Assembly (NCBI GenBank): GCA_976551045.1
Contig: CDPCPM010000233.1
Location: forward strand, 62,001-126,000
DNA: 64,000 nt
From: Glaucostegus cemiculus
Taxonomy: Eukaryota
Reading direction: 5' to 3'
How positions within the stretch are numbered: position 1 is the first letter of the stretch; every line of letters begins with the position of its first letter. Position numbers and translations under genes: made by a program. Below, in pieces: positions 13,792 to 41,160 of the stretch. The notes under the pieces are model-generated. The model saw nothing but the letters and a program-made list of their open reading frames with translations, ran no database searches and was not told the DNA's origin.

Positions 13792-13890
13792 GTTGTCTGT
13801 GCTGCTCCCCTTAACCTTGAGAACAAATCTGGGCTGAAACCTTCATCTCCTGGTCAGACTTCAGGCAGTGTGTGCTATGAACGCAATGGG
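13792..13890 (+). CDS. CSDE1: CSDE1 coding exon 3 (symmetric cassette exon, 33 aa)
   Basis: gtccag|GTT...GGG|gtaaga; VVCAAPLNLENKSGLKPSSPGQTSGSVCYERNG; 99 nt, phase 0-0. Confidence 0.94.
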
Positions 13891-16420: not shown

Positions 16421-17794
16421 CATCATTACAAGTATAATATGAGAAGAAAATATATCAGTGGAGGACATTTGGATTGGTTCTACACGCGTGGTGAGTCTTG
16501 GGTCTGCTGATCATTGGATAGTCCCTAGTACAGGGAGGACATTTGATCTATTGTCTGTATCTAGTAGCTTTAGGGTAGAATGGAATGTCCTGCTTTTGGA
16601 TTCTTTGGTTGGGATTACAATTCACTTTATAGATCGTGAAGCATTGCCTATGGGTACAGTAATGATGTGTGTTGGAATATTCATCAAGTCAGTGGAATGC
16701 ATGAAAACAATTCTCTCACAGCTGCTAGTTTTTTTCATGAAGGAATGGAGAAGGAACCAGTGGTTAGAATTTCACTGCTGCACAGGTGTAATAATTGTCC
16801 TTGTGCTAATTGGTTCTGTGGTCCACAGTGGGTCTGCCATCAGGTACCCAAGGCCCTGGTGGGGATTGCACAAAGGACTTCTGTAAATCCAGTACGAGTG
16901 ATTTGTGTGTAAGGGAAGTGTAGGATGATTTAGAGGGTTAGGGGTGTTGATAGGGGATGGTCTTGGATCAGAAAAGTGAGCAAGAGTCAACTGCTGTTTG
17001 CATACATCATACCACTAGTTGTTGGGAAAGTGCAGATGGATGAGTTGTGGGGTCGTGAAATCAGTGCATGGGGTAGGGTATGGTTGGTGATGAGGGAATA
17101 ATTTGATTTGTCAATCAAAAGCTGAGGCTTGTAGTGATTGGATATGGGGATGGTGTTTCAATGGCAGATAAAGGTTTTGATTGGGCAAAGATTGTGAGCT
17201 GGGAGGCTGTGGTAGGGTTTAGGGTGTTGTGGAGAGGTGGCAATGGTAACATAGGAGGTAAGGTGGCTGAAACACCAATAATATTTGAAGAGGGATCTAG
17301 TGTGGATTAGGACCTCATCTGGAAGACCCCTTTAATCTGTTCTTCTGCAGCATGTGCTGTTATCACCAGCAGTAGGTGCACTTGATCATTGTGATCAAAT
17401 TTTACATACTAGTGTTACTGTGGGTATCCTGTAATATCCTGTTTAACATGGAAAATTTGTGCATGTGCAATTGATAATAGGAAGTAGATGGCCAGATTTC
17501 TGAATTTATGCTTTTGATCTGGAAATTGCTTTGTATCAATGTGCTGAAAAGATGCCACAGTTTTCAATTTGGTAAAGATAGTTCCTTGTAAGGAGATGGG
17601 TGCCTGTGCCAGCGTTATTGCTGAACTGTGCCATTGATTCAGATAGTTTGTATTCAGCATAGTAATTTGTCTGCACTTAAGTTTTATGAAAATTTCAGAC
17701 AATCTTTTGATCAAAGCATACTGTTCAATTAATATATCCCTATGAACAAAATATTAAGGGCATCAGTTTAAATTTGTGTAAACAGGGAATGGTA

Positions 17795-18900
17795 AGGCAG
17801 CATCTATAAAAAGAAACATTTAATATTTCAGGCTGAAGACCCATCAGAACTAGCAAAGATATAAAAGGTAGCTTAAGTTCTAGGGTCATGGTGATGGCAT
17901 GGAAGCAGGCCTATAAAGTCCACACCAACCCACTTTCACGCTATTCCTATCCTCCATTTTCCCCACATTCCCATCCACCTCTCCCCACACACATTTGTGT
18001 GCATGCAGTCTCTCTACCACTTACCTACACACTAAGAGCACTTTACAGTAATTAATCTACCAACCTGCCCAAACTCCAGATAGTTGCTGAGAAGCTGGTA
18101 AAAGGAAAGCATAAATGGAATATCTTGGTTAGCTGAGGCCAGGTCAAATGGGTTAATGGGGCATTTGGAGTGATTATGCTTAATTGTATATTGCTAATTA
18201 TGGAGGTGTGGAACATACCCAGTTGGTCAGACTCTACTAAAAGGGAGAAAGCAACTGAACCAGTATCATAGATGAGTTGAAGCAGAAATTGCTCGTTCTG
18301 TCTGTTAAGACAGAAAGCAATTTACCTAAAGCTGAGGAATTCTATATTCCATAAAGCTGCAATGTTCCCAGGTGGAAGATGAGATGTTGTCCCTCAGATA
18401 TTTGGATCTTTTACTGCGTAGGAGGTCATGGGTCAGAATGGGAGTGGGATGGAGATTCGGTGGTAGGTGACAGGAAACAGATGGCCATTCCTGCAGATTG
18501 AATACAACACTTCAAAATAATTGTCTAATCTGTTTCTCTGATGTAATGGAGACCACATTGAACATGAAAGGCAAAACACAATTGAAAGAAGTGCTAGTAA
18601 ATTGCTTCACCTGTAAATACTTGGTCCTGGATAGTGGGAAGGGAAGAGTTGAAAGGACATGAAAAATGGTGAATGGTTGGGTATGGAAGAGCAGATGGAT
18701 TCATGGAGGGAATGGTCCCTTTGAAATGCTGAAAGGGCAGGCGAATGCATCTGCTGCTGGAATCTCAATGGAGCAGGTAAAAATTGCAGAGGACCCTTTG
18801 GGTGTGAATACTGCAGGAGTGGAATTTGAGGACATGATGGCTCTGACCTTGCTAGTGCATATTAAATTTGGAGAAAGTAAGTGGAGTTGAAGTTCAATGA
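17795..18900 (-). mobile_element. Degenerate Penelope-like fragments with an embedded SINE-like piece (about 17895-18070)
   Basis: Shares motifs with 7940-8600 (gcagcatct...aagacccatcagaact; aagatgagatgttgtccctc; gggagtggga). Confidence 0.5.
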
Positions 18901-20479
18901 AAGGACAAGTTTAGCCAGGCCTAAATGAGTGTTGCTGCAGAGGAATTGGTTCAAGGAAGAGCCAGAGGGTGCTAAGCCCTTTCTAGTCTAGGATGGAACT
19001 GTAGAGCGATTGAACATCCCTGGTAAAGGGTGATCCAATTAGGGCTAGATAACTGGAAACTTCACTGGTGGAGGGTATCTAAAGTGTCATGGATGCAAGT
19101 GCGAAGAGCCTTGCTATTAGTAATGCAACAGAAGCATAATCACTCTCCAACTATCCCCATTAACCCATTTGACTTGGCCTTGCCCTATCATAGATATTCC
19201 TTTTGTCTTTTCCATCCTTACTGTAACTTGAAACTACATTTTTTATATTCCTTTCCTGGTTCTGGCAAAAAATCTTCAACCTTCCCCACAGATCCTCCCT
19301 GACCTGAGTGTTTCAAGAATTTTGTTTTTCAGATTGACAGCATCTTCAGTGTTTGTTTTATTGAAATAGAACCTGGAAAAGTGCATCACAGGAACAAGCC
19401 CCATTTACCTTTAACTTCCAATCCTATGTCTAAACTAGGACCTTCTGTAATATCCTGTGCTTGAATGCTTTGTTTAAAACTTATGGGAAGAATGTGAAAG
19501 GAGATGGATAGCTAAGTCTTTGGCTCCTGTGGAGAAGTTCCTGGTTTCCACTCAGTACCACCCATAATTTGATTTAGAAATTATTAGTATACAAGAAATA
19601 CTGTCATGCTCGTTGTAATAGTGTTATGCCATGACAGAAAACAGGAGTGATTTCACATTTAACAGTTAACTTAATATTACCAATCTTCAAATTTTCACTT
19701 TCTTCTAGAAGTCATCTGATTATCTGTTTAGGCTTCTGTCAAAGGTAATTTCTCCTTTCCTGTTTCTTTGTTGTCAAACTTATTAGCCCCAGTAAAATGC
19801 AAATAATGACTATTTAGCTCCCCATGACAATATTGAAGGAGTTCAGGTTATCTCCCAACTTGATGTAGTGAGTAAAAAAAACTGTAATTGAAAAAATTTT
19901 AGGTTTTAGTGGAGGAGTTGTCACAAAGTGGAAGAAACTTTTCTTACTGGTACCTGGCTTGCATTCTTGAAATGCTACATCATTGTTTATGAAAGCTGCA
20001 GTTTTTTCAGTGTACAGAATGCAGTATCATGTTGTAGATTATCATTGTGCAAGGAAACCATGAGCTCCAGGTATGCTTAGTTCTGTTAAATTGGTTTTGC
20101 TTTATTCAGGCTCTGCTTTCATGGATTTCTTAATGCGGGTAGGACAGTAGAGGGAGATTTTAGACAAAATGGATTGTTTTAAGGCAGTTTTTGTTTCTTT
20201 GGCTCTGGATTTTGTAGGAAATACTGTATTCTTGAATTTTCCCTGCTTTGAGTACATCTGACCTGTTTTAGTAGTTGCTCCTAACACTCTGGTAAAGGAG
20301 CATTACTAAGTTTGGTTGAACAGAGGTGGAATATTGACATTAATATCTTACATCAGATGCCTGTGAGGAAAATCTGTTTGAAAGCTTCATTCTAGACATT
20401 GATGGAGAATGAGAGATCCGCTACTGTACTTGAACAACAGAAGACCATGAGCCAATGTTTTAATGTCAGTGATGTGCCT

Positions 20480-22118
20480 GGAAGATGTGGAAGTGGGTGA
20501 GGTCCTTAATAATTCTCTTCAGTATTTACCAAGGAGAGGGGCCTTGATGACGCTGAGGGCAGTGTTGGTAAGGTTAATGTTTTAGAGCATGTTGATATCA
20601 AGAGGATGTGTTGGAGCTGTTAGAAAATATTAGGACAGAAGTCCCCAGAGTCTGACTGAATATTCCCCAAGCTGCTCAGCAAGGTGAGGGAGGATACTGC
20701 TGAACCTTTGGCTAGGATCTTTGAGTCCTTGTTGTCCATGGGAATGGTACCAGATGATTGGAGGGTGGCAAATGATGTCCCTTTATTCAAAAAAGGTCGT
20801 AGGGATAGTCCAAGGAATTATAGACCAGTGAGCCTTATGTCTGTGGTAACTAAGCTGTTGGAAAGGATTCTTAGAGATAGGATTTATGGGCATTTAGAGA
20901 ATCATGGTTGATTGGGGGCAGCCAGCATGGCTTTGTGAAGGGCAGATCATGTCTCTCAAGCTTGATAAGTGTTCTGAGAAGGTGACCAGACAGATTGAGG
21001 GTAGTGTAGTAGATGTGGTCCACATGGATTTTAGTAAGGCATTTTGTCAGGGTTGCACATGGGATCCAGGGAAGCTTGGCTATGTGGATTCAGAATTGGC
21101 TGGCCTGTAGAAAGCAGAGGGTTGTGGTGGCGGGACTGTGTTCAGCTTAGAGGGCTGTGACTAGCAGTGTCCCACAAGGATCGGTTCTGGACCTCCTGCT
21201 TTTTGTGAATTTTTTTATTAATGACTTGGATGAGGGGATAGAAGGGTGGTTTGGCCAGTTTGCAGGTGAGGCAAAGTTTAGTGGTGTTCTGAATAGTGTG
21301 GAGGATTGTCAAAGAATGCAGAGGGATACTGATAGGATGCAGAGCTAGGCTGAAGTCACAGATGGAGTTTAATCTCGAAGTCTTTGGAAGGCAGAATGCA
21401 AAGTTAATGGCAAGATTCTGGTTAGTGTGGAGGAGCAGAGGGATCTGGGGGTCCATATCTACAGATCCCTGAAAGTTGCCTCACAGGTGGAGAGGGTAGT
21501 TAAGAAAGCTTATGGGGTGTTACTTTCATAAATCAAAGTATCGAGTTTAAGAACTGCAAGGTAATGATGCAGCTCTATAAAACTCTGGTTAGACCACACT
21601 TGAGTACTGTGTCCAGTTCTGGTTGCCTCATTATAGGAAGGATGTGAAAGTGTTGGAAAGCATGCAGAGGAGATTTACCAGGATGCTGTCTGGTTTAGAG
21701 TATGCATTATGAGGAGAGACTAAAGGAGCTAGGGCTTTACTCTTTGGAGATGAGGATGAGAGGAGACATGACAGGTGTACAAAATAATTAGAGGAATAGA
21801 GTGGACAGCCAGTACCTCTTTCCCGGGGCACCATTGCTCAATGCGAGGGCATGACTTTAAGGTACTGGGTGGAAAGTTCAAGGGAGATATCAGAGGGAGG
21901 TGTTTTTACCCAGAGTGGTTGGGGCATGGAATGCACTGCCTGGAGCAGTGGTGGAGGCAGGTACATTGGTCAAATTCAAGAGATTGCTGGATAAGCATAT
22001 GGAGGAATTTAAAATAGAGGAATATGTGGGAGGAACAGGTTAGATAGTCTTAGGTGAGGTTTAAAGGTCGGCAAACATTGTGGGCTGAAGGACCTGTATT
22101 GTGCTGTACTGTTCTATG
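20480..22118 (+). mobile_element. CR1 LINE, 5'-truncated, with frameshifted ORF2 reverse transcriptase
   Basis: ORF remnants PDDWRVANDVPLFKKG...NYRPVSLMSVVTKLLERI, VDVVHMDFSKAF, SSVPQGSVL...FINDLDEGIE, and 3' tail gggctgaaggacctgtattgtgctgtactgttctatg. Confidence 0.95.
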
Positions 22119-23904
22119 GAGGTAGCATCTGAGAATATGCCATAATATCCAGGCACAGCTAGAGTGTAAGATTGATGTTGGCCCTTTTCTAATTGTGCTT
22201 AAATCCATTTCTTTCTTGATTTTAACTCTGCATTTAAAGGTAGCATGCAAAGGGAGTACAGACAGATGAGTAACCTGGTAACAAGACTGCCTGTAAACTC
22301 AATGCAGTTAAATTCCTTGACCACAGACTGCACTTTTGATCTTTGGAAAGATTGTAGTGACTTCAGTGATTAAACGACCCTAAAACACCACTACCTGCCA
22401 TTGTTTTTATCGTCTTTAAGTAAATAGCTTTAGGCATCATCTAGTGCCAGGCTTGTCTTGCAGGGAATTTTTACTGTAACTACAGTTTCTGTAGAATGTC
22501 TGCCCATTTCCCTTTGCTGAATTGGGATTTTCCCCTCGATACTGTTATTGTTTGAAGCATGTTATTTATAGGAGAAGCAATTAAGTACAAGAGTAAGTAA
22601 AACTCTTAATTGGCAAATTCAGAGCTAAACCCAAGTGTATATGAGAGACTAACCTATGAGGAATTTCATAATACTTCTGTGTAATATGTTGAGCGTGCGG
22701 GTGATGTCTTTTTCCACACAGTGAATGTTTTTCCTTTACCACTATGATGCAACAGCTTTGGGGAAATTTGGTATAGGAGTTACTGTCATCAAACTCCTGT
22801 ACCCTCAAACATACTCATTTGCTTGTGCGTTAAATAATATGTACTATTTCAAGGCTACAGCTTGTTTGCAGCATCGGGGGATTGGTAAACTTTGTATCTT
22901 GTTGGCCCTCTTCAGTGCTGTAATTTGAGGAAAATGGGAACTTTGCATTTTATGGTTTTCTACTAATTTCAAAATACTTCCAGTACTCAACTGGGATTTC
23001 TTTAAATTTTAAGTGGCTTCTTATCTCTGTTCTACTGTGTGGTTTCTATATTGAAGCAAACATTGTAATTGACCTAAAAATGTTTGCTTTTATTGCCCCT
23101 CTCAATCTCCACATACTAATTTCTTGGTCTCTACTGTATGGTTTTGGAGATGTCATAAGGTGGTGAAGGAATAAAATGTTATAGCAGCTTGTCCAAGAGT
23201 TCAGTCAGGCATTTTACCAGCTTGTTTATTATAAGGCATGATGCCAGTAAGGCACGTGTTTTAAAAAGCAGGGGTGTGGGGGTGGGTAAAGGAAAGTATT
23301 AATGGCAAATTAATTCTGGTGATGCCCTATCCAAATATCTCTAGAACTTGAACTAGTATTTCCACTGGTGTTTCATCAGTTTAGTAACCACGTTATAGAG
23401 ATGAGAAAAGTGCAAGATTTGATTTTTTCCACCCATGCTGTATCAGGAGCTTTCAGCATGCCATTGGCCTTGGTACTCTGGGTTTGGAGCAGTTGGTCAG
23501 AGTTCCTTCTGACTGACCAGGGCCATCTGTAAATTGAGACCTTTGCGTAAAGGTAGAATGCACTTGGCTGATTCACCCTTCATTTAGGTGACATTGAGAC
23601 TACTTTTGTCACTGCTCAAAAAAAAACTATTTTAGAGCTATATTGACTAGTGAAATCTTCAATATGGAGCATTGTAAATCTAAACCAACTGGTGAAAAAT
23701 GAAAGGAAAAATGGATTAGCATCAGCTGTGTACTTTCCCCAATGGCTAGTTAAAAATTCACTCATTCATAAATACTCAATGTTTTGGCATACAAATCTGA
23801 CAATTACTTCTGTAGTTTAAAAATTAGATTGTTAAAATGGTTAATAATTTTGCTCTGTGATTGTATTTAAACCACCAGATCTAATTGATTGCTTTTTGGT
23901 TTAG

Positions 23905-24002
23905 GAAGTGTTTTATCTGACATATACACCTGAAGATGTTGATGGAAATGTCCAACTTGAAACAGGAGATAAAGTTTCTTTCTCCATGGAAACAAATAAA
24001 CA
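23905..24002 (+). CDS. CSDE1: CSDE1 coding exon 4
   Basis: ttttggtttag|GAA...CA|gtatgt; EVFYLTYTPEDVDGNVQLETGDKVSFSMETNK; 98 nt. Confidence 0.96.
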
Positions 24003-25845
24003 GTATGTATGGTCAACTTGGTTTACTAATTTTGGTGTTTTATATTTTGTGATCAGATTCATTGCATAATTCAAATCAAATATAGCCCTATACAATATTC
24101 TGAAGCAATATCTTGAATAGATAGCACGTATAGTTTTCAGGAATATGCTTACTCCATCTTGAACAATGTTTTGCTGCTAAGCTGGGTTCTCTAATGACAT
24201 TGCAACAAAAGTTCACTGTTGCCATTTAAAAGGTCAGCCATATAACTGAAAGATCAAAATGATTTTGTATAAATCTCCCATGCTCTACCGTGAACATAAA
24301 ATACTTGTATTCTGTGCTATACCGCGGCAATTGCTTTAACATTTGTCCTTCGTTCTTTCAAACTGGCTTTAATTTTAAACGCATGGTTTCTACTTGTTAA
24401 ACATCTCCAGAAAATCCTGGAGATGTTTAGCAGGTTTTTGGAGAAAGACATTGTTTTCAGACTGCTTTCATCAGATCTATAAGTGAGAAATGTCTTGAGT
24501 AGTGGGAGTGGCAGTAGGTTGGAAAGAACAAAGAATATCTGTGCCAAAGTGAATACTAAGATTGTGTGACATGCTGTTTTAGTCTAAGGGGTGGTGTTTG
24601 TTAAACATTCTGGAACTCCAGATCAGCAATAATTCATTATCCTCTTCGGTACCAATCACAATAGTGTTATCTGGGAAATCTTAATCACCACCTACCGGCC
24701 CCTGCACATCTGTTATGGTCACTCTTCCACTTCTGATGGAAGGTCATCAACCGGAAATGTTAATTGTTTCTTTACACAGATGCTGCCTGACCTGTGCATC
24801 CCAAGCATTTTCTGTTTTCTTTTCAGATTTCTAGCACCTGCAGTTTTATGGTCTTCATGTTCATATTTAAATCTTGCATCAATAATCAAAAACTTCCATA
24901 TGCATAATTACCAGATGTATTTACTGTGCTCCATCCCCAGTTCTAAAGGACAAATTCCCATCCTGCTTAGGATGGGATTAAAATTTTGGCAAGGTCTGGT
25001 TATTTTATTTATTCACAGGGCATGGATATCATTGGTAAGGTCTGTATCTACAATCCACTGCTAACTTTCTCCCTGAACTGGTGATCTGCTAGATTATTTC
25101 AGGGGGCAGTTAAAAGTCAACCATGTTGGTAGTTCCAAAGTCATCAGCATTGATAATAGCTTTATTCCTGGTTTATGTAATTGAATTTAAGTTTCCCCAG
25201 CTGATGGAGTTCAGATTGTTCCAGAATTTAGCTTCCAGTAAATTCAAGTGAACTAGCCTATCTCCAAGTAAACAGTTCCCTTATTTTCCCAGGAAAAAAG
25301 TCCTGTCATAACAACACAATATTACTTAAAAGGTCATTGGTGCAGTATTGCATTACAGAAAGTGATTTCTAGGAACTCAAATAGCTCAGTTTTGTATTTT
25401 ATTGTATATCCACACTAGATATTTGGACAGCTTGCTATCCTTAATCATTTGTTAGGCTCCAATTTTATTTTGCCATTTTGAGTTGACATTCTGGTCACCT
25501 CGTTCAATTTAGAATCTGTCTTGTAGCACGGCAGCAGGCCCTTGGGCCAACCACGTCCATGCTGACCACCTTGCCCATCTACACTAACCTCATTTGCCTG
25601 CATTAGGCAGTGTCCTTCTGTGTCTTGCTTGACTATCTGTCCAAACACTTGTTAACTGTGGTTGTAACCGATTCTTCTTCGTCCTCCACCTCTGGTAGCA
25701 TGTTCCAGAGATCAACCACTTGTTACAAACAAAAAACCTTTGTCCTTAAGATCTCAAAGCTTTTTCCTCTTGCCCTTTTGATACCCCTGCCATAGGAGAA
25801 ATTTTGACTGTCTACCATATCTGTGATTCTCATAGTCTTGTATAC

Positions 25846-26268
25846 TGTCGGATCCAATTATTTTCAAATCCACAGGTTCTTTCAGGAGTCCAGGAATGAG
25901 TTGAAAACAACTTGTTACTTCAAAGTTTTATTGGAGAAGTTTAAAACAAAAACAGTCACAGAGCCCATGGCACTGGCTTTGAGCCGAGACAAAGGAACAA
26001 AAAGCTCAGGCCATGGGAGAGGAAGAGCAAGAGAGACTAATGAAAAGTGACACCTTTTCTACCTGAGATAAGAGGTGCACTTTAAGTAACAATAATCCAA
26101 TCAGGAAACCTATCAGACAGTTGTGGCCAAACTAACCAATGAAAAAAAATCACATTCACTTGATGGACAAACCAATACGCTAGCAAGCGGCCATTCCTTG
26201 TGCAGCTGCTTGAGGTATATTAAACGCTATACCTGTTAAAAAGCTAATTAAAATAGTCCAATCCAACA
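25846..26268 (-). mobile_element. Putative solo LTR (423 bp)
   Basis: Termini TGTCGGAT...ATCCAACA (TG..CA, 7/8 inverted match), minus-strand AATAAA at 25927-25932, CCAAT boxes at 26097, 26136 and 26172; cleanly interrupts the CR1. Confidence 0.7.
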
Positions 26269-26405
26269 GCACCTCTATCAGGTCACGCCTCTGCCTCCTT
26301 TACTCCCAAGAAACAGATTCCAGCCCATCTTTTGTCTCCCTATAATTAAAGTCCTCCGATCTAGGCAAAACCTTTGAATATCCTCTGCACTCTCTCTCGT
26401 GCATA

Positions 26406-26474
26406 GTATGTTTTCCATTTAGACTCTATCCTGGAGGAGGTAGATACAGTTGATGTATGGAAAGCTGTAGATTT
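26406..26474 (+). repeat. Dispersed direct copy of 28441-28509 (first 69 nt of the intron after coding exon 5)
   Basis: Manual ungapped alignment gives 65/69 identity; GTGCAT occurs on both flanks (26399-26404 and 26477-26482). Confidence 0.92.
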
Positions 26475-28358
26475 TAGTGCATCTTTGCCATAGTGTGGTG
26501 ATCAGAACTGTGTCCAATACACCAAGTTTTGGCCAGTTTTTTAAGTTGGAATGCAGCATCCTTGCTGTTTAATTCTGTGCTGACCTATGAAGGCAAGCAT
26601 GCCATATGCTTTCATCACCCTGTCAACTGGGTTGCCACCTTCAGGCAAACCATACTTGGACCCTGAGGTCTCATCAGTGTTCCATAGTGCCCTACCATTT
26701 ACTCTGTCCTACCCTGACCTCCCTACAATGCAGGACCATGCCAAATGCTGTACTAAACTTTATCAACACCCTGCTGCCTTCAGTCTCCTTTGTTACCACC
26801 TTAAAAACAAATTAATGCGACAGGATTTCTCCTGCACAAAACTATGCTATCTCTGATCAGCCCCAGCCTTTCCAAATCGACATATTTTCTGTTCCTTAAG
26901 GTTTTCTCCAATAATTTCCCTACCACTGATAAAGGCTCACTGGCCTGTAGCTACTTGGCTGTATCCCTGTCGCCCTTCTTAAATGAACATTAGCGATCCT
27001 CCAGTCTTTAGGTACCTCAGCTGTGGCAAACAGATCTTAAAAAATTGTCAGAACCCCAACACCCCTCTTCCCATAGCATTCTGGGATAGATCTTACTGAA
27101 CCCTTGGGATTTATTCACCCTTATATGTTCCTCTGACACCCCCACTTTCTTAATACTAACATGCTCCAGATTCTCAACATATTCCCTCTTGAAGGATTTG
27201 TCAGCCTTCTCATCCTTGGTGAATATGGATGAGTAGTATTTTTCTAGGACATTGCCCACATCCCCTGGCTTCACGTGCAGATTACCCCTTTGGTCCTAAA
27301 GAGGACCCACTCTTTCCTTAGCTGCCCTCTTTTTCCAAATATACTTGCAGAATGACAGGATTCTGTATTACATTGCCTGCCAAAGGTATTTCATGGCCTC
27401 TTTGTCCTGTTTCATTAAGTACACTCCTAATGGATAAGGCATTATATAGAAATTGGGCTTCATTCACATATGCAATGAAAAACTTACTTCCTTGCATATT
27501 CTTCTGTATGCTATGTGCCTCATCACAGGTACATAGCATCAGAGAAGCAGCACTCAAGAATATGTTGTAGCAACTTCATATCATTAGTCAGATTATTACA
27601 GTTCCCAGCTAGGTACCAGTGGTTTCAAAGAATTTACATTCCATTTAATTGGAACTGAAGATGTTGCCTGTGGCAGCAGTTTCATTTGGTGCAAGAAGTA
27701 GCCTGTTCATGTGAAATAGCTTATTGAGGCAGGCAGATTATACTTTTTACTTGTAAACCTTGCCATCTAAATTACAACAATATAATTGTAGCCTGTGATC
27801 CCCTACCTAACCCAAGGGGTGTTGGCAATCACTGGGTTAGACTGTTTCACAACAAGTGGTCACGATCCACCAAAGAACCTTGGAGTGTGTTCTGCATGTC
27901 CTTGTCTGCAGAGGAACAATGAGGTAACAGTTCATTAGTTGAATGCTTATCTCAGCATTGTTTGAAGGTTTAGCTGCATTCAAAGAAACACTGTAGTTTT
28001 AATAAACTGAGTCCATGTATATAACTTGACAAGTGCAAATGGGATTTCCATTTCTCATGGTAAAGACCACCTTTTGGCACATGCTAGAGTTGACAGGTGC
28101 TGGCTAAACCAACGTTGGCCCAGATGTTGCTTCGCTAGCTCAGCTGCTACCCATCTGTGAAGTGCCAGAAAATTAGCTTTTACTGTATTTTATTTGGCAT
28201 GTGTGCAGATGACTTGTGGGTATGCTTCTGCACATTTTGAACAAATTTTTAGGATAATTGAATGTACAAAATAAAGCAGAAGTTGGCAATTCAGCTTCTC
28301 ACCAAATGTAATTGTGTAAAATACTTAATCTCTAACCACAGATCTTTGTATTTTTCAG

Positions 28359-28440
28359 TACTGGTGCTGTAAACGCTCACAACATTGTATTGGTGAAGAA
28401 GAAGCAGGGCCGATGTCAAGGCGTAGTTTGTGCTATGAAG
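28359..28440 (+). CDS. CSDE1: CSDE1 coding exon 5
   Basis: tttttcag|T...AAG|gtatgt; (H)TGAVNAHNIVLVKKKQGRCQGVVCAMK; 82 nt. Confidence 0.96.
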
Positions 28441-29597
28441 GTATGTTTCCCATTTAGACTCTATCCTGGAGGAGGGAGATACAGTTGATGCATGGAAAGT
28501 TGTAGATTTCCATTGAAAGGAAGATGGCAGATTTGTTTCTTTGCCTAACTAAAATTACAGGGACAAAACAGTAAAGAAATTGATTCTTTAGAAATGCAAG
28601 AACAGTTGAACTGATCAGAATCTGGAAAAAAAGTTGGATTGAATTGATACTGTGTATATAGTGCGCCTTTAATTTTGTCCCTGAATATGACTAGTTTTGG
28701 TTACAAGTGGAAGGAGTGGAATATATTGCCTGCTGGAACCAGTCCTCCCATTCATTTAGGTTTATCTTCTATCTTGAGTCCATTTTTATGTTGAGTCCCA
28801 ATGTTCTGATTCCTTGGGGTTTGTTGTGGGGTGGAAATGGCAAATATTGAAAATATTCGTCTATGTTAAGATATTTGCTGTTTCTTTAATATTCGAAGAT
28901 CTGTGTTTCCTTATCACACTTTGGGTTGGCTAAGTAAATTTGTATGCTCTGACAATAGCCTACTGGAATTTTAATTGTCATTTAAAAAATAACATAATTT
29001 TGTAAGTAACTGAAGCTGTAGAAGTACATTCTGCTCTTAAGAAATGGAAGTTATATTGCCCCTCAAGCCTGTTTGACCTTTCAGTTGGCTCATTGCTGAT
29101 CATAGATGTAATTTATTTTTCTTGCCCAGTCACTGTGTCCTCAAACTCCCTGAAGAAAGATGTATCTACAGTTTTCAGAATTTGATACGAAATGCCTCAA
29201 GAGTTACCCTCCTTTATTGATTTGAAATATTTTCAGATTTTTGGATTGAAATACTGTAAATTTAATATCAAATTTAGTTTGTTCAATCTTATTTCTCAAG
29301 ATTTGAAAGGGGAAATCCAGTGTGTGTCAAAGAGATCGTGCAAATAAGGATGTGTATCTCACTGATGTTTGAATACTTTTTTGTTTAGAAATATTTGGCT
29401 CAATTCAATAGGGAAATGCTTATGCCAGTGCAGGTGTACAGTTGTCAGGAAAGGGAGGTTGTTGCATTTATTGTTAAGCCAATATAATTAGTTTAACTGA
29501 AATTTAATCAGAAAAATATGTGCTCATTTAATGTATGAGGATCTTGTATGTATTTCAGGATATTGTGTTAACACTAATTGTTTGTTGAAATTCACAG

Positions 29598-29726
29598 GAA
29601 GCATTTGGATTCATTGAAAGAGGTGACCTTGTGAAAGAGATCTTCTTCCATTATAGTGAATTCAAAGGAAACCTGGACACATTGCAGCCAGGCGATGATG
29701 TGGAATTTACTATTAAAGAAAGAAAT
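29598..29726 (+). CDS. CSDE1: CSDE1 coding exon 6 (CSD core)
   Basis: ttcacag|GAA...AAT|gtaagc; EAFGFIERGDLVKEIFFHYSEFKGNLDTLQPGDDVEFTIKERN; 129 nt. Confidence 0.97.
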
Positions 29727-31623
29727 GTAAGCAGTGTTGAAGTAAAATACAGAAGAATGAATCTCAGTACCTGTACATTTGGCTAGTTGATCCACAAAAC
29801 CTGCAGTTTCGAGGATTCAATGTAGATATCCTTATAAGAAACTATACCATTTCAATTTTTCTTTATCCTGCACTTGCACCTACTCTGCAATTCAGTCCTT
29901 GGTTGTCATGGTTGTCCTTTATCTCAGTACCACATTCCTAATTTCTCCATGTTCCTTTGTCCTTTTTGTCTAAAAAATCAGGGACTCAAATATTCAGTGA
30001 CTTGACTTCTGTGGTTGAGAAATCAACTGCTTCAACACCTGATGGAAGAAACCTCTCGGTTCTAAATATCTTGCCCTGTATCCTGAGTGTTACCCCCTGG
30101 TTCTGGACCCCACCCCTCTCCAAACCAAGGGAAATAGCCATTTGATGGTTTGCTGTGAGCTGTTAGTAACTGGGGCCTCTGAGCTCTCTGCCATATTTCT
30201 TCAATATATTAAGAAAAGCTACATCTGACAGTTTTCATGCAGCACTTTTTCAGCTTAACTAGCATATCATGAAAGTGACCTAGTGGAATTTTAATTTCTG
30301 CAATCAATTATTAAAATGTATTTTTAATTACCGCTCAGATTGAAGTCTTAGATGAATATAGGAAGCTTTTCAAGTACATGACAAGCCTTGTGTAGAGCAT
30401 GTACACAGTCTGAGCTATAATGACTTGTGCAATAAGTTTTACAGAGGAGCATGTTAAATTTTCAAGTATTGCTATTTTTCACAAATCCCAGAGGTTTGCC
30501 CTATAGTTCATGTGGCTCTAGAATCACTTTTGGGAAATAGTGACATCTAGTGCGCAGATGAGAAGTTTCATCCTTTAGTCATATTATGGATGTTCATTTT
30601 CTTTAAATGTAGATTCCAGAATGTGTTTAAACAAAACAAATCGGGAAATGTACTTGTGGCTCTTTCAAGTCTCTTTTACATTTATACATGCCACATTGAA
30701 CTACAAAGCTGAGGTTTTGAATCACAATCTAAGCTCATGCTATATTTGTTAATTGGTCTAAACTAAATTGTGGTAAAAAGCCTTTGGAAAACTGGAAGGG
30801 AGAGAACCTGGCACTGTTTCCAATCTGCAGCTCACTTTGTTGGTTCAGTTTGATAGTCCAAAATATCCATTAAAGTAATTGTAGGTACAAAAGTAGCTGG
30901 ATGTTGTACAAAAGGATGGGGATAGTGGGAATCTACATCAAGGGCCTCCACCTATGTTCCACCATTGGGCTTGGAAAGATTAGTGAAGTTCACATTTTTG
31001 TTTGTTTTAGTGGAATAACCATCCTGTACATTGAAGATTTGTTCACTCATTCTGCGTGATCGGAGATTTCAAAATCCTTGCATAATTCTGTATCCATTAT
31101 TTCCCTTGTTAAAAACTTGTATTGTTTAAAAACATTTTTTCTCCCTGAAGTAAGAAGTTGAGAGCAGTACATCTGCTCTTCTACTGTAATCCACTTTAAG
31201 TTGTGTATCCATTAAGCAGTAACACCCACACAGGTGAACAGTGATTAGTTTTAATGTCACTATGGTGCAACACTTGAATTTGCCATGACGTGTGCAACTG
31301 CAGACAGCTGTAATGTGACTTTTTGTAATCATTAATAATAACCTCAGAACCACAGGGGTTCTGTGGTGTACAGTCACAAAAGATTTCTTTATGTTCATGT
31401 TTCTTGTTATTATAGCCATTGTAAAGGGGTAAGATGCTTGATTTCAACATGATCAATTCCCCATAGCTATCCTGAAGTAATGTGCTTCATAATACACTAC
31501 TTGCCAAAATTGTTTTGAATTTCTTTGGCAGTATACAGTCAGTACAGTGAGCAAAGAATTGTTTTCATTTAGGAAACTAACTGTAATGAAAACTCAATGG
31601 TCTAGTGATGTTTTGTTTTCTAG

Positions 31624-31749
31624 GGAAAAGAAGTTGCCACTGAAGTGAAACTGTTACCCCAAGGAACTGTCATATTTGAGGATGTTAGTATTGAACAGTT
31701 TGATGGAACTGTCACCAAAGTTATTCCAAAAGTATCCAGTAAAACCCAG
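31624..31749 (+). CDS. CSDE1: CSDE1 coding exon 7
   Basis: ttttctag|GGA...CAG|gtaaat; GKEVATEVKLLPQGTVIFEDVSIEQFDGTVTKVIPKVSSKTQ; 126 nt. Confidence 0.96.
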
Positions 31750-32631
31750 GTAAATCTAGTATAAATTTACTCCGGTTATTTCAAAGATGTACATGTTCCT
31801 AAATGCAAGATTGAATTGTTGCAACAGGTGTTCTCTCTGGCAGAAGTATGGCAAAATGGCCATTGTGTTCAATAACTTTGCTGTTTTTCATATTTCAACT
31901 ATTTAGTAATTGGGCAAAACAATTCTTTTTAAACATTTTAATAAAAATTGACATTAACAATTGCTTCATTGAAATTGGAGAACAATCTCAAAACATGCAA
32001 ATAGGAAAGTCAGGAGCATGCAGAGAACTACAATAATGATTTTAAGTGCCAGTACGTAATGGCCAAATGTGAGTCAAGTAAGCTGTTCAAGTAGACATGC
32101 CTGGAGTAATCATAACTAATCTTGTTTTAGTCAAAATCTTACTGGCTACTGAAGTTTGTGACTGAGGAATGAAATTCATTCTGAATTAATGTCTATGATA
32201 GCAAAGGGGAGAGGGAAGGGTTGAAAAATGCATATTCAGTTAATTGCTCACTGGACACCGGCAGTGATTTTATACTAAATGTGATCTTTGGTTTAACCCA
32301 CATGGTTTCTAGGGTAATGAGACGGGAAATATCAACATCTTTGAAAACTTAATAAATTGAGTACAAGCAAATGAACAATAAAACCATAATGTTCCAGTAA
32401 ATGTATAAATATGATCTTTTTGTAAGTACTCAAATCGTAAACAATTCCAGTCACTAGCATAACTTATTTTCCACAATGTTTCCCTATAACCAAATTACAA
32501 AATGTACTTTGATTTTAATTTAAGTTTGCAATTCTGCAATAATTAATTACTAATCATTTGTGTATTGTTACTGATCATTAGACTTGTTTTATCACTTACC
32601 TACTGAAAGTTGCAACTTTTTTTTATTGTAG

Positions 32632-32844
32632 ACTGATCCTTTGCCAGGACGTATCAAAGTAAACTTTACCATTTCCAAAGAACTTCCCTTTGGAGATAAG
32701 GACACCAGATCTAAAGTTACTCTATTAGAAGGTGACCATGTCAGGTTTAATATCTCCACTGATCGACGTGACAAATTAGAACGAGCTACAAATATTGAAA
32801 TCCTGACTGATTCTTTCGAGTTAACCGGAGAGACCAGAGAAATG
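32632..32844 (+). CDS. CSDE1: CSDE1 coding exon 8
   Basis: attgtag|ACT...ATG|gtaagt; TDPLPGRIKVNF...TGETREM; 213 nt. Confidence 0.97.
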
Positions 32845-32902
32845 GTAAGTTTAAGATTTTAAACTCTTAATACAAGTAATCTATTAGGATGCATTGAGGT
32901 AT

Positions 32903-32923
32903 TAGTGACTTTAAAAGTCACTA
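32903..32923. repeat. Near-perfect palindrome (10-bp arms, 1-nt spacer)
   Basis: TAGTGACTTT-A-AAAGTCACTA. Confidence 0.9.
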
Positions 32924-33112
32924 GTGGTTTTGGAAGGGGGAGGTAAACAAGTAGATGGTGAAATAATGGACATGGCATTGGGAGCACAAGTATAGGTAAT
33001 GGGTTTATTGATTTTTTAGGGTGACAAACTAAGGATACTTGAACATCAGTGAAAGTATTTGTAAATTATGTATTCTTTCCCTGAAGAGTTACAGATACTC
33101 TTGTTTCTGTAG

Positions 33113-33253
33113 GGTGTGATTGCAGCTATGAGAGATGGATTTGGTTTCATTAAATGTGTAGATCGCGATGCTCGAATGTTCTTCCACTTTAGTGAGATCA
33201 TGGATAGTCTGCAGCTCCACATCTCAGATGAGGTTGAATTCACAGTTGTCCCC
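33113..33253 (+). CDS. CSDE1: CSDE1 coding exon 9 (CSD core)
   Basis: ttctgtag|GGT...CCC|gtaagt; [28 protein letters not shown]...EFTVVP; 141 nt. Confidence 0.97.
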
Positions 33254-34281
33254 GTAAGTGCTTCGATGTGTATATTAAGTGCTTTTATTCAAATTTGTAT
33301 ACAGTTATGATTTGAGCTGATAAAGGAGCAGTATCTTTGGCCTCCGGTCCTTAATTTGTTGCTCACTCCACATAAAGGTAATTTATACTGACTGTATAAT
33401 TGTCTATGTTCACATCTCAAATTGGCTCGATAGCACTTTCTGTAAGCTAACTGCCTATGTATTATGTCCCAAAATGGTAATTGATGTATAATACTGTTTT
33501 AACTTTGGTTCTGCTTGGAGGAATGCTAGCTCTGGTAAATGTGGACGTGCTGTTGGATCTTGTGAATACCTGAACTCCTTGTCAGAAGCTAAATTAAGGA
33601 ACCAGTGGAACACCCTGTGGAACATCAAGTCCTTGACAAAGGAAGGAAATAACTCCCTGGAGATTGGGGGGTGGGGGGAGAACATAGATACCTACAGCAT
33701 AATTCAGTTGCAGATGTCATTGCAGTTAGGGACAGGTGACCAGGTCAGCCACCTTGCAGACATCAGCAGGTGGGTCATTTGGACAGAGACCTCATACAAG
33801 GAAGAGAGATCTAAATGGTAATTTTGAATTGTGACACAGGATTATTGGTGGATTAACCTCTGAGATGGTTGCAAGGGTGCTGGACTCTGCTCATTAGAAA
33901 AGAACAGTTGAGAGAGGGGTATCAGATGTTAAATTAACATTACTGTTGTCTCTCAAACTCTTAAACCCTGAATCACAGGTGTCAATTCAGTCCCAGGCTG
34001 TTGTAAATGTAGATGGGCAGGGAGGGACAATAGTCTTGCAAAAGAGAGCATGGTCTGCCTGCTTGAGAATGGTGCTGGAGGATGAAAACTTCCATATTTT
34101 AATACTTCTAATCAGAACAGTGTACAACTTGTTTCTTAGACATCTTACAGAAACATTAAATAGTCTCCATTACAGATTACACATGGCAAGTTATCTTTCA
34201 TAGAACAGTACATTTCTTGGCAATTGTATATTGTGTATTTGCATTATCAGTAAAGATCTAATTGGTTTGTTTTTTTCTAAG

Positions 34282-34446
34282 GATGTTCTTTCAGCTCAAA
34301 GGAACCATGCAATCCGTATTAAAAAGCTTCCAAAAGGGACTGTGTCGTTTCACACACAATCTGAGCAGCGTTACTTTGGCGTTGTGGAGAAAGAAGCTAC
34401 TGGTTCAGTGTCCAAGTCCACCAGCCCAGCTAAGAGTAAAGAAAAA
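34282..34446 (+). CDS. CSDE1: CSDE1 coding exon 10
   Basis: ttttctaag|GAT...AAA|gtaaga (AAG acceptor); DVLSAQRNHAIRIKKLPKG...AKSKEK; 165 nt. Confidence 0.96.
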
Positions 34447-34634
34447 GTAAGATGAATCAAATCAGTGTGAAGCATTTGGCTGGCCTTGAGGATTCCAGCT
34501 TGATGTTGGTTCTGTAGAAATTTTAAGATGCCCTAATGGAATTCAAGAGAGCATTGATTATTTCTATACCTGAACTGATTACAATGTGAATGTTGCACCT
34601 GTTTTAGAAATATTATCAAAGCTGTTAGTTATTC

Positions 34635-34975
34635 TGACCATAGAATGGAGAAGATGAAAGTGACCTAATCAAGGTTTTCAAAGTAAGGTTTGTAACAGAT
34701 TTTCCTCTCTTGAATGGTGGGTCAATAATATGAAGGTCGTAGATGTAAAACCATTAGAAAAAGATCTAAATGAAAAAAGTTTTTGCCGAAGTAGCTTGAT
34801 CTGCGATAATCATTTTCCATCAGAAAAGTGGTGGAAGCTGATTCAGTACGTCATTTTTAAAGGGATGGAAACTTGAGCAAGAGTTTAGAGTTGTGGGTAA
34901 GAAAACAAGGGTATGAAACTACATGGCTGCTCCTTCAGCTCATGGATTGAATGGTCTTCATCTGTATTGCAGATA
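34635..34975 (+). mobile_element. Old CR1 3' fragment
   Basis: gagaagatgaaagtgacctaatcaaggttttcaaa...gctcatggattgaatggtcttcatctgt resembles the CR1 ORF2 end and 3' UTR. Confidence 0.55.
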
Positions 34976-37900
34976 TGAGTCTGAATGACTTGTTAAGACT
35001 TATCTTTCTAGGCAGGATCTGAATGCATGATGTTTTTGTGCTACTGAAGCCAGAGTTTTGTTAGTGCAGTTGTCTCGTCTCACTATTGTAGCTTCCAACT
35101 TTATCCACGAATGGATTGGAAAGTGGGAGGTATGATAATTAACTACTGAAAACTAATGAAAATTTTGCTTATTTCTGCCCATTATTTGATTTGAGTGGTA
35201 ATTTAATTTAATTTGTATTAAAATTAAGGCACAGTGCCAGGGTGGAGTTTAAAATCTTGTTTTGATTTGATCTGTGTTAGCAAAGTACCTTTGACTGTGC
35301 AGAATTTGGCCATAAAATTCAGCCTGGGTCTCACAACAGATGCTAAAGCAGCTTAAATTATGGCAAAAATGGATTTACTGAGATCTCCATAGCCCAAGTT
35401 TTATACAAGTGTGGCATCCTTTTGAAGACTGTTCCTATCTTTTAGCTTCCTTTCCACAACTTTGGAGTCTGGCTTTCCATCTTTAGTATGCTACTTCGTT
35501 TAATCTGCCAGAGATCTTAAGGAAAAGCAAGTGTTATATTGATGTGGGTGAAATAATTGGAGTTGTAGGAAGTGCACGTAGGCTAACATTGCATTTTAAC
35601 CAACTAAGGTTTCTGTACTTTGGAAACAGCTACAGTCAAGCAAAGTGAGATGAGCATGCATGACCTAGAAGAATCAAATTGTCAAACAACCCTTTGCATC
35701 AGTTTTTCTCCTGATCCAGCAGTATGCATGTGATGTAATGGCACTATCCTTGATCCTGATATTTCTATGGCAGCAAATTCCACTGATCACTCAGCTGGGA
35801 GAAAATACCCATGGCTCATGAAATCCTTTTTTAGTCTGTTTTTAAATGCAACTTTGGAAGTTGCACAGCTTCTGATCATTTGATTCTCTCAATATACAGG
35901 ATGTCACAGAGACAAACTGGCTTTAGTGAATAAGTATTTGGCATCAAAATACTGATATTAATGTGTACTGCCAAGTCTTTGCGTATACATTGGCAAGATG
36001 GGTAGGGCATTGACAAGAATTTGGTGACAGGAAGGCATACAAGGTTGATGGAATTCTGGTAGCAAAATGTCCATGAAAATTGATGGCAAGTTTTTAAATT
36101 TTTACTTTCAACTGCATTTAAACTTGCATTCTCCAGATTATTTGAAAAGTAAAAAAAAAAACTGCAGATACTGGAAATCTGAAAACCTGAAATAAAACTT
36201 CTGGAAGTACTTGTTCTGTCTTTTTAGATAGACATGTTAATTGCTGCTGATCTATCTGGAGATAGTGTAAATAAAGGTTGATGTATGAGAATGGGAAATG
36301 AAGTAATGCAGGAACAAAGATATAGAACACCTGCAGCCTTTTGTTTAGCTGGTAGGTGTATTACTCTGCTATTGTCACTGGAATATGCCCAGGAATACCC
36401 TGGAATTCTGATTTTTATCCAGTGGGTACAAGTCCAAGTCTCTGCTCAACTTTTTATTCCCCTGGGTAACCTTCTGTTTGCTACTCCGGTATGTACTGTA
36501 TAGAGCATTTTATTGGCTACGACATTCAACTGCTCAGCATTTGCCTTAAGTTTGGGTAAAAATGTTTACCATCTAAATTGCAAGCATATCTTCTGGACAT
36601 GGAGAATTCAAGTTCAGGATGAAGAAAGAAAATGATGCTATGGCATGGTATCCTTCATGTTTGAATGCTGTAGTGATCAGTATCACTTTTAATACCACTT
36701 TTCCCTGTCAAAACTTTTTCATTTTTATTAACTGATTTTTCACTCGCCACAAGCTTTTTCTCAAGTATTTCAAAGTGATTGAACTGTGCTTGGGAAGTAA
36801 TGGAACTAAGATATTATTTTAGGGGTGCCGGTGGAACAGGAAGCTAAATTAATGAAAATTGTTTTTAGTTTAAATTCAGAACATTGTGTCCTTGGTGATA
36901 TCAGAGCATGTGGAATCCAAAATGCTGGCCATGCAGAATAGCTTTAATCAAAAGGTCAGGTAGCTGCAGTGGAAAAAGTGTTTCCAATGGGAACTAACCC
37001 CCCCCCCCCCCCCCCCCAAAGTTAGAACTGGGAAGGAGAAAGTTGTTTTCACACTAACCTTTTTCTCCTGAGAATCTTTGACTTGAACCATGAACTCTGC
37101 TTTTATCATTATTAGTTTTACTTCAGAATTCCAACATCTGCAGTTTTTATTTTTGATGTTTTTAATCAAAGGGATTTTGTTCACAGATCTCATGTAAATT
37201 ATTTAACTGAAAGTCTTGGTCCTTTTTGCATTGACCTAATATGCAGCTGTCTTTACAGCAAAGTTTCCCAATCACTCGCCCAGAAATTCTGATGGTAGAG
37301 GTTGGCAGTATTGTCATGGTTGGTAATATGTTGCAACTGCTGTACATGTTTAGTGTAGCTCAGTTTGCACTGAACTAATACTAATTTGGTCTGTATCCCA
37401 GATTGTAGTGTGTGCATTGTGCACTGCTGAAATGCGTCTGAATTAGATCTCTTGATTCTACTTTACTGTCTGCAACCTTGCCTCTTTCAGTTGAAGTACA
37501 AAGAATACCAGAAATGCGAATCTCCTTATTGTGTGCTAACTTTGCTCAGGAAATAAAATGGAGTCCTTGCAAATCCTGTTCATTTGCATTTCATTAGATC
37601 CATGTTTTGTTTTGTTACTAGGCAATATTTAGGCCAAATTTTGGCATGGTTTTACCACAGCACAGTTAATATTTGCGGTGAAGCTTATTGAATCCTTTTG
37701 TGTAAAACAATTCTAGGAAGTTAAATGACTAACTCCAGTGAATTATAGGACCTTGCATTATGCAAGTTATTGGCCTAGTGGAGGTTTTCCTTTGGCTAAT
37801 CCTAAATCTGATAGTATAGAATGTATTCTACCTAACTAACCAGTGAATTGTATTACTTAAATTCTGCATAAAATGCATCTTGTCATAAATGAAATCCAAC

Positions 37901-40489: not shown

Positions 40490-41160
40490 ATTAGGAGCAA
40501 AAGTAAGCCATCTGGACCCTTCAGTCTGCTCTGCTGTTCATCAAGATCATGGCTGATTTGTCTACCTCTGCTCTCTTCCTCCAGTATTCCCCATTTTCTC
40601 AATATCCAGAAATAAATGCAACTGTGCAGTGACCTACAACCCTACAGGGTAGGGAATTGCAAAGATTCTCCACCCTCTGCCAGAAAAAATCTCTCCTCAT
40701 CTTTACCTTAAATTGTTGACTGCTTATTTTGAAACTGATTGCTTGTTCCAGACATCTCGGAACAACTTCCCTGCATCTATCCTATAATGCCCTGTGAAAA
40801 TTTTGTATGATCCACTGGTATCTCCCCTCATAAGCAGACTGGGTCTGTACACTGAATTAAGCTCTCCTTGTATGGCAATGCACAGTAGTGTTTTGACCCC
40901 ACACTTCTGGTAATCCCAGGAATCAGTCTGGTCACCTTTTTCTGCATTCTTTCTAATACTTGTGTATCACCTTTTCCTGCATTCCTTCTAATACTTGTGT
41001 ATCCTTTTTGAGGAAGAAAGACCAGATTTGTACATATTATTTTGAAATCTGGTTTCAGAAGGACCCTGTTTAATTGGAGTAAGAAGGCTGTACTCTAGTA
41101 TTCAAATCCTTTGCAACGAAAGCCATTGGCCCTATTCATTATTGTACTTGCACACAAATC
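40490..41160 (-). mobile_element. CR1 3' fragment (antisense)
   Basis: ttaggagcaaaagtaagccatctggacccttcagtctgctctgctgttcatcaagatcatggctgat is the reverse complement of the CR1 tail type seen near 11880-11950. Confidence 0.7.
40932..41001 (+). repeat. 35-bp tandem duplication (2 copies, 2 mismatches)
   Basis: tcacctttttctgcattctttctaatacttgtgta / tcaccttttcctgcattccttctaatacttgtgta. Confidence 0.9.

Follow-up and report, generated by a model that had tools for sequence, protein, structure and literature searches.

Introduction

The closest described systems are the RDs of Pace, Sen, Batzer and Feschotte (2009), repair duplications which take the form of local copies inside transposable elements and are mostly DNA-templated (PMC2671141). 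By the definition used in that work, an element is interrupted by at least 50 bp, with its two halves lying within 30 bp of each other in element coordinates, while the interrupting sequence occurs in exactly one other place, the donor being at >50 bp and <5 kb, and carries no poly(A/T), its junctions showing microhomology, filler or a deletion (PMC2671141). In that study, 824 of 1,136 cases have their donor within 5 kb, with a distance peak at ~1.2 kb; the mean length is 162 bp (range 50-619), either orientation occurs, 278 of the 824 human donors are intronic, exon-intron pieces are found among the copies, and RDs are found also in zebrafish and chicken (PMC2671141). Among the proximal cases inspected there (n=39), 6 list a target-site duplication (TSD), 31 have microhomology and 8 have none (PMC2671141).

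Other forms of break repair and retrotransposition also bear on such copies. The scar left by POLQ is described as a patchwork of flank sequence (PMC13269935), for class 2 TSI/TSIP RNA templates have been proposed and intronic sequences are among the donors (PMC5110952), and whole-intron deletions have been used as evidence for mRNA-templated repair (PMC12065846). LINE-1 chimeras ending at splice donors, on the exon side, are likewise on record, in a report whose available text makes no mention of lariats (PMC13174262). Our own literature search, which covered titles and the openings of abstracts and reached subscription journals thinly, returned no donor-anchored or lariat-derived genomic insertion. 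In this report we consider where, among these processes, a short duplication in an intron of the gene CSDE1 belongs.

The duplicated segment and its host gene

In the window, that is the whole 64,000-nt stretch of DNA analysed, the best self-match (E 1.6e-23) is a direct repeat of 69 nt in which, according to the repeat finder, 26406-26474 and 28441-28509 agree without gaps at 65 of 69 positions (94%), the same value as that given in an earlier note on this DNA. The four differences between copy and source, three transitions and one transversion, are 26414 T/28449 C, 26441 T/28476 G, 26456 T/28491 C and 26465 C/28500 T. Copy and source are separated by 1967 nt, and the copy is sense-oriented in the same transcription unit. 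A search of the genome (2.85 Gb) with the 69-mer, in which very common words were skipped, gave two matches from two candidates, exactly the number of places that had been expected, and since an Rfam scan of 23000-31000 gave no match at E up to 1, no known small RNA accounts for the 69-mer.

The host gene is CSDE1/UNR, as identified by the match of exon 29598-29726 to PDB 2ytx (E 1.5e-22). Its exons, the coordinates of which were read by eye from the window sequence, form a chain of 18 with AG/GT ends, extending over 2644-62732 and comprising 830 codons with no stops; given this stop-free chain and the 2ytx match, the source starts at the first base of a real CSDE1 intron. Beyond the 69 nt the bases to each side of copy and source agree at 2 of 10 positions only, so that no exon sequence was copied, and to regard the AG on the left of the copy as exon-derived would require an additional one-base deletion. 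The earlier claim of a start at the first intron base after exon 28359-28440, with no exon attached, is therefore upheld, and the exon is real. The features of the gene that concern the duplication are these:

23905..24002, plus strand: CSDE1 exon before the host intron (24003-28358), the donor of which has the same +1 to +6 as the start of the copy (exon chain, motif comparison)
26406..26474, plus strand: the 69-nt insert, copied from the 5' end of the intron (repeat pair, genome search, flank comparison)
28359..28440, plus strand: CSDE1 coding exon of 82 nt, upstream of the source and absent from the copy (exon chain, flank comparison)
28441..28509, plus strand: source, comprising 69 nt of the CSDE1 intron 28441-29597 from its GT donor onward (repeat pair, exon chain)
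29572..29578, plus strand: branch-point-like motif of the source intron with a predicted branch A at 29577, from a motif scan alone and bearing solely on an origin from a lariat
29598..29726, plus strand: next CSDE1 exon, encoding a cold-shock domain and closing the source intron (PDB 2ytx match, exon chain)

Elsewhere in the gene, in-frame CSDE1 exons at 2644-2781 (138 nt) and 13792-13890 (99 nt) are present in this fish, and these we take to resemble the mammalian alternative N-terminal and cassette exons. The intron upstream of exon 23905 contains a long sense-strand retroelement relic (20460-22120) with a recognisable reverse-transcriptase region and a 3' tail, and a short near-tandem duplication of ~30 nt was noticed by eye within an antisense retroelement relic at 40935-41000.

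The split retroelement and the direction of copying

The flanks of the copy match a large repeat family at ~70-80% (49 matches among the 40 scored of 1,195 candidates), and frames of related family copies, which encode reverse-transcriptase and endonuclease domains (Pfam RVT_1), align to 26267-27404 on the minus strand. Because the related frames carry these two domains, the host element is a non-LTR retroelement relic, which we take, by resemblance, to belong to CR1. Its two parts are:

26267..26403, minus strand: left flank, antisense non-LTR retroelement relic, C-terminal part of ORF2, in register with paralogues (DNA and protein matches)
26480..27404, minus strand: right flank, the same relic continuing to its reverse-transcriptase region (DNA and protein matches, Pfam)

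In one paralogous frame the match to the right of the insert ends at residue 176, and the match to its left begins at residue 180. The element had been described as split by the copy, and its sequence indeed resumes on both sides at the level of both DNA and protein; since the retroelement resumes on either side of 26406-26474, the upstream copy is, judged by the sequence, the derived one, so that the direction of copying proposed in the earlier note holds, given the split.

The junctions and the question of a target-site duplication

The junctions were resolved by aligning each flank separately to 28 paralogues of the retroelement (a MAFFT alignment of seven paralogues with the window misplaced the insert and was set aside). 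The projected overlap of the flanks is -3 in 18 of the 28, six others give other small values (-4 to -44) and four were unusable; an overlap of -3 in 18/28 means that 72 bases were added (69 plus TAG) and that the flanks abut, with no net duplication. On the left CGTGCATA lines up with the family's AGTGCAAT, and on the right TGCATCT lines up with the family's CACATCC, which delimits two short stretches:

26404..26405, plus strand: left junction, TA, either filler or diverged element bases (family: AT) (paralogue alignment)
26475..26479, plus strand: right junction, TAG(TG), 3-5 nt of filler matching both flanks and giving a TSD-like look (paralogue alignment, relatives)

In total the junctions comprise 3-7 nt of filler and a loss of 0-4 nt. 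CATAGT, read across the left junction, where it overlaps the copied GT, is found again at 26489 (expectation 0.13 in 200 nt, both strands); TAGTG from the right junction has a second occurrence at 26491 (expectation 0.53); and the right-hand AGTGCA is identical to the family's left-flank letters. When the flanks of the source were compared with those of the target, no clear microhomology was seen at either end.

The earlier note had likened GTGCAT, present on both sides of the copy, to a target-site duplication. The letters are indeed there, at 26399 and 26477, and TCGTGCAT (26397-26404) agrees with TAGTGCAT (26475-26482) at 7 of 8 positions, an agreement which would suit LINE target-primed retrotransposition, yielding a tailless retrocopy of intron RNA with a target-site duplication of 6-8 nt. 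The copy is also complete at its 5' end, truncated at its 3' end and devoid of a tail, like the tailless retropseudogenes (PMC5322556). The duplication itself, however, is doubtful, in that a true TSD would need a separate loss of 6 nt from the element at the same spot, seen in none of the 24 readable paralogues, and these show the right-hand GCAT to be mostly a continuation of the element. Furthermore, the signs of a LINE retrocopy (class 1 TSIP), poly(A) and a TTTT/A target, were looked for at the junctions and neither is there; the 3' end of the source has no complementarity to the target, the source continuing with CC and the target with TA (2 of 10 match), whereas 2-18 nt would be expected of a tailless retropseudogene; and a landing 2 kb from the source is unexpected for mobilisation in trans. 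A likely orthologous contig from a relative, organism D, moreover stops short of the G at 26479. We thus regard LINE retrotransposition as a highly improbable origin of the copy. The simplest single event, on the paralogue alignments, would be one in which 0-4 nt were lost and the filler was copied anew from the flanks.

Relatives and age

Relatives were represented by twelve runs from five organisms, sharing 5-10% of the window words, and five of these runs were compared. In organisms B, C and D the source region is found in single contigs, about 5-8% different. In organism D a 782-nt contig matches 26480-26672 at 92% (about 190 nt) and stops at 26480, its 434 leftover letters neither lying on the insert nor being seen to rejoin the left flank, while the best paralogue to the matched stretch in the present genome reaches 73% over 246 nt. 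This contig is likely the orthologue and would represent a partial empty site, and its failure to reach across the G at 26479 argues against a putative pre-collapsed site. For organisms B, C and E, depth across the insert is what the source contig alone provides, the site itself being unassembled, so this was not counted as absence. A joint of 26402 to 26480 in B and C, considered as an empty site, was rejected, its sides being only ~28-40 nt and the sequence probably a paralogue.

The divergence between copy and source is 4/69, with a 95% interval of 1.6-14%. As this interval brackets the distance to organisms B-D (about 5-10%), the event may be older or younger than the split from them. The duplication is real, derived and old. 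An assembly artefact could be suspected in that no run of the source species covers the site (best share 0.10), but four scattered differences and clean junctions inside the element are unlike a mis-join, and both copies lie in one 12-Mb contig.

Possible splicing consequences

Donors were scored with a small matrix built from the 17 window donors. The decoy donor ATA|GTATGT that the copy had been said to plant is present, and its +1 to +6 are those of the host intron's own donor; yet it carries little weight, scoring 3.1 against 3.7 for the weakest real donor (leave-one-out) and ranking 27 of the 239 GT sites in the host intron. Similarly, the TGCATG at 28489, which we take to be an RBFOX motif, reads TGTATG in the copy, as the earlier note had it, but this change too has little weight, there being 34 such motifs on the plus strand of the window and one in 69 nt being expected at ~3% by chance.

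Within 26421-26446, the G-to-T change at 26441 makes a new GT, and between this and the AG at 26421-26422 lies a pseudo-exon of 17 nt that would shift the frame; in the host intron its acceptor ranks 10 of 252 and its donor 15 of 239, and the source is without it.

A splicing element retained by selection would accord with the donor-like start and with the possible pseudo-exon arising through the change at 26441. Against this, the splice scores are mid-range among hundreds of decoys, and that the copy should be either such an element or the artefact discussed above seems to us extremely improbable.

Local pairs and the chance of a donor start

The frequency of comparable duplications was surveyed in 1.664 Mb of the same contig (C233:2001-1666000), compared with itself and filtered for pairs with a length of 26-700 nt, a minimum identity of 80%, a spacing of 50-10,000 nt and no third copy in the sample. 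The survey yielded 22 pairs including 26406/28441 (17 under a stricter identity filter), the lower figure of 10 being set by hand, since some pairs may be repeat remnants; they are candidate repair copies. The other 21 pairs comprise 8 direct and 13 inverted. Near-unique local pairs so counted amount to 6-13 per Mb, extrapolated to 17,000-36,000 per genome, and are thereby much more frequent than the 0.08-0.65 per Mb of element DNA in other vertebrates under a stricter filter (PMC2671141).

For the chance estimate donors were placed in the 65% non-repeat fraction. Vertebrates typically have 150,000-220,000 donors, and this number was assumed. With it, any one pair has a probability of 2.4-5.9e-4 of starting within 3-5 nt of a donor, so that 4-21 donor-anchored cases per genome are expected at that tolerance, and the chance of a donor-anchored pair in a given 64-kb window is, with tolerance, 1-5e-4. 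For an exact start, taking the tolerance-3 values divided by 3, the figures are ~1e-4 per duplication and 1-4 per genome. Given 1-4 exact and 4-21 tolerant cases per genome, donor-anchored duplications must arise by chance, though rarely in any given window.

Of the 21 other pairs, 2 have a donor-like 5-mer at an end, where 0.87 would be expected (P 0.21). An excess of donor-anchored duplications over random breakpoints, proposed earlier as a genome-wide test, was sought in the 1.664 Mb, where 0/21 other pairs are shown to start at a real donor and chance suffices; this count bounds the donor-anchored share at <13% (upper 95%) and is too small to exclude enrichment.

Several individual pairs deserve mention. 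At C233:637461-638065 (L083:1461-1584, 1942-2065) there is a 124-nt inverted local copy of 96% identity which starts GTAAGG after AGG; it was rejected as donor-anchored, a repeat fragment preceding it and 0/117 nearby frames (of 203) matching Pfam, a scan that short or non-coding exons would escape. The pair C233:573228/575261 was rejected likewise, its donor-like motif being in one copy only with no recognisable exon before it, as was the pair 662359/662731, which ends near an acceptor-like AG, no convincing exon being apparent by eye. At C233:1104876-1105589 (L129) lies a two-donor patchwork in which copies of 32 nt (100%) and 70 nt (96%) stand 14 nt apart, with sources 300-600 nt upstream. 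A 162-nt direct local copy at C233:931282-931877 (L112), 99% identical and apparently young, is a good candidate for intact junctions or polymorphism. Finally, C233:1150750-1151746 (L134) holds a 246-nt inverted pair, 91% identical and 515 nt apart, in sequence otherwise unique.

Origin of the copy

The copy is probably a repair-mediated duplication made from chromosomal DNA 2 kb downstream, its start at a donor being probably a matter of chance. What is observed comprises the copy and its direction, the failure of the search to turn up a third occurrence, the splitting of the element and the letters of the junctions; from these we infer a break, copying and rejoining. A germline DNA break would have occurred inside the old retroelement relic in the CSDE1 intron, and a broken end would have invaded or annealed to DNA 2 kb downstream and synthesised 69 nt; rejoining, SDSA-like or by polymerase-theta-type end joining, would then have lost 0-4 nt and re-copied filler from the flanks, TA on the left and TAG or TAGTG on the right. 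Afterwards the copy likely drifted as neutral intron sequence. Repair is made likely by the conformity with the features of Pace et al. (2009), the flank-matching filler, the frequent local pairs and the adequate chance rate, chance being adequate for the donor start because local pairs of such size and distance are common here. Against it speak the exact, ungapped start at G1, which has a chance of ~1e-4 per duplication (donor number assumed), the lack of clear microhomology at both ends, and the sense orientation within one transcription unit, which is what copying from RNA predicts.

The RNA in question would be the excised intron RNA, as a lariat or debranched, captured in cis at a break near its gene, an origin we hold to be unlikely, if far from negligible. 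Priming would take place from the broken end within the intron RNA; copying by a reverse transcriptase or repair polymerase would proceed back to G1 and halt at the 2'-5' branch or at the free 5' end, and the resulting cDNA of 69 nt would be joined into the break. The exact start at G1 without exon, the sense orientation and the location in the same gene are all consistent with this. Of the branch-point sequence that a lariat cDNA would carry 5' of G1, only 2 nt fit: the TA at the left junction agrees with what precedes the predicted branch A, as if the branch base itself had been passed over. The motif scan gives branch-point candidates at 29571 and 29577, and TA stands before each of them. 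Moreover, RNA-templated patches at breaks are documented (PMC5110952), spliced mRNA is able to template repair (PMC12065846), and DBR1 was scored as a modulator of theta-mediated outcomes (PMC13269935).

However, this is a single case chosen for its coincidence, and chance yields 1-4 exact cases per genome. The TA has a chance of ~9%, and the CATAGT shared with the flank accounts for it equally well. Among clones from in vitro read-through of the 2' arm, 67% had mismatches and 10% had deletions (PMC5399748). Source and target share no 3' complementarity, a second case was found in 0/21 pairs in 1.664 Mb, and the documented RNA-derived patches come from distant loci, not from <5 kb (PMC5110952). 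In our judgement, cis priming at most 70 nt from G1 on a short-lived lariat also takes several rare steps. The posterior for an RNA origin depends on the prior, being 0.2 if 1 in 10,000 duplications is lariat-derived and 0.7 if 1 in 1,000 is; we place it at about the lower of these values because the repair-duplication class behaves as DNA-templated and because of the rare steps needed, again a matter of judgement. Of the two origins that the earlier note had left side by side, intron-RNA capture and DNA-templated repair, the second is thus favoured, the case for the first coming down to the donor coincidence.

Significance

As a DNA-templated scar, the copy presents an eye-catching donor coincidence with no shown function. 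More generally, a donor-exact start offers a clean and countable signature of any local repair duplications that may be copied from RNA, the mirror image of the whole-intron deletions (PMC12065846). The less likely alternative is that the copy is a fossil left by a spliceosomal intron RNA which, once excised, was reverse-transcribed in cis into a cDNA ending at the lariat branch and patched into a break in the gene it came from. If so, lariat capture would here have left its first known trace in a germline, and the copy would point both to a hidden RNA-templated subclass of local repair duplications and to a route for spreading 5' splice sites. Should an excess of donor-exact starts exist, excised introns would be returning sequence to the germline genome, a matter of relevance both to intron gain and to how cryptic splice sites arise.

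Comparison with known systems

The copy resembles the tailless retropseudogenes in its complete RNA 5' end, truncated 3' end and missing tail, but those are dispersed and have TSDs together with 2-18 nt of 3' target complementarity, features that are missing or doubtful here (PMC5322556). With class 2 TSI/TSIP it shares the character of a break patch without poly(A) or a true TSD, while theirs come from distant loci and, in the text available, no donor-exact starts are described (PMC5110952). The likeness to the templated insertions of polymerase theta (TINS) consists in the combination of deletion and insertion, pieces identical to the flanks and patchwork junctions (PMC13269935), and with respect to the at least 6 bp identical to break sequence by which TINS are recognised, there is CATAGT at 26489, overlapping the copied GT, and AGTGCA, equal to the family's left flank. 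Unlike TINS, the main template lies 2 kb away and not at the break (PMC13269935).

The agreement is closest with the RDs, which are likewise short nearby copies in a transposable element with one other copy, no poly(A), filler and a small deletion (PMC2671141). Set against their definition, the split consists of 72 added bases with the halves in register in 18/28 paralogues, uniqueness and distance are given by 2 matches of 2 candidates at 1967 nt, and the junctions have no tail, filler with a small loss, and no clear microhomology. In contrast to 31/39 of the inspected RDs, clear microhomology is wanting at the CSDE1 copy, and this copy starts at the first intron base, donor starts not being tested in the available text of that study (PMC2671141). 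Four of five RD features are thus present in the CSDE1 case, the fifth, an empty orthologous site, being partial in organism D, and the copy is likely a further case of the process described in 2009.
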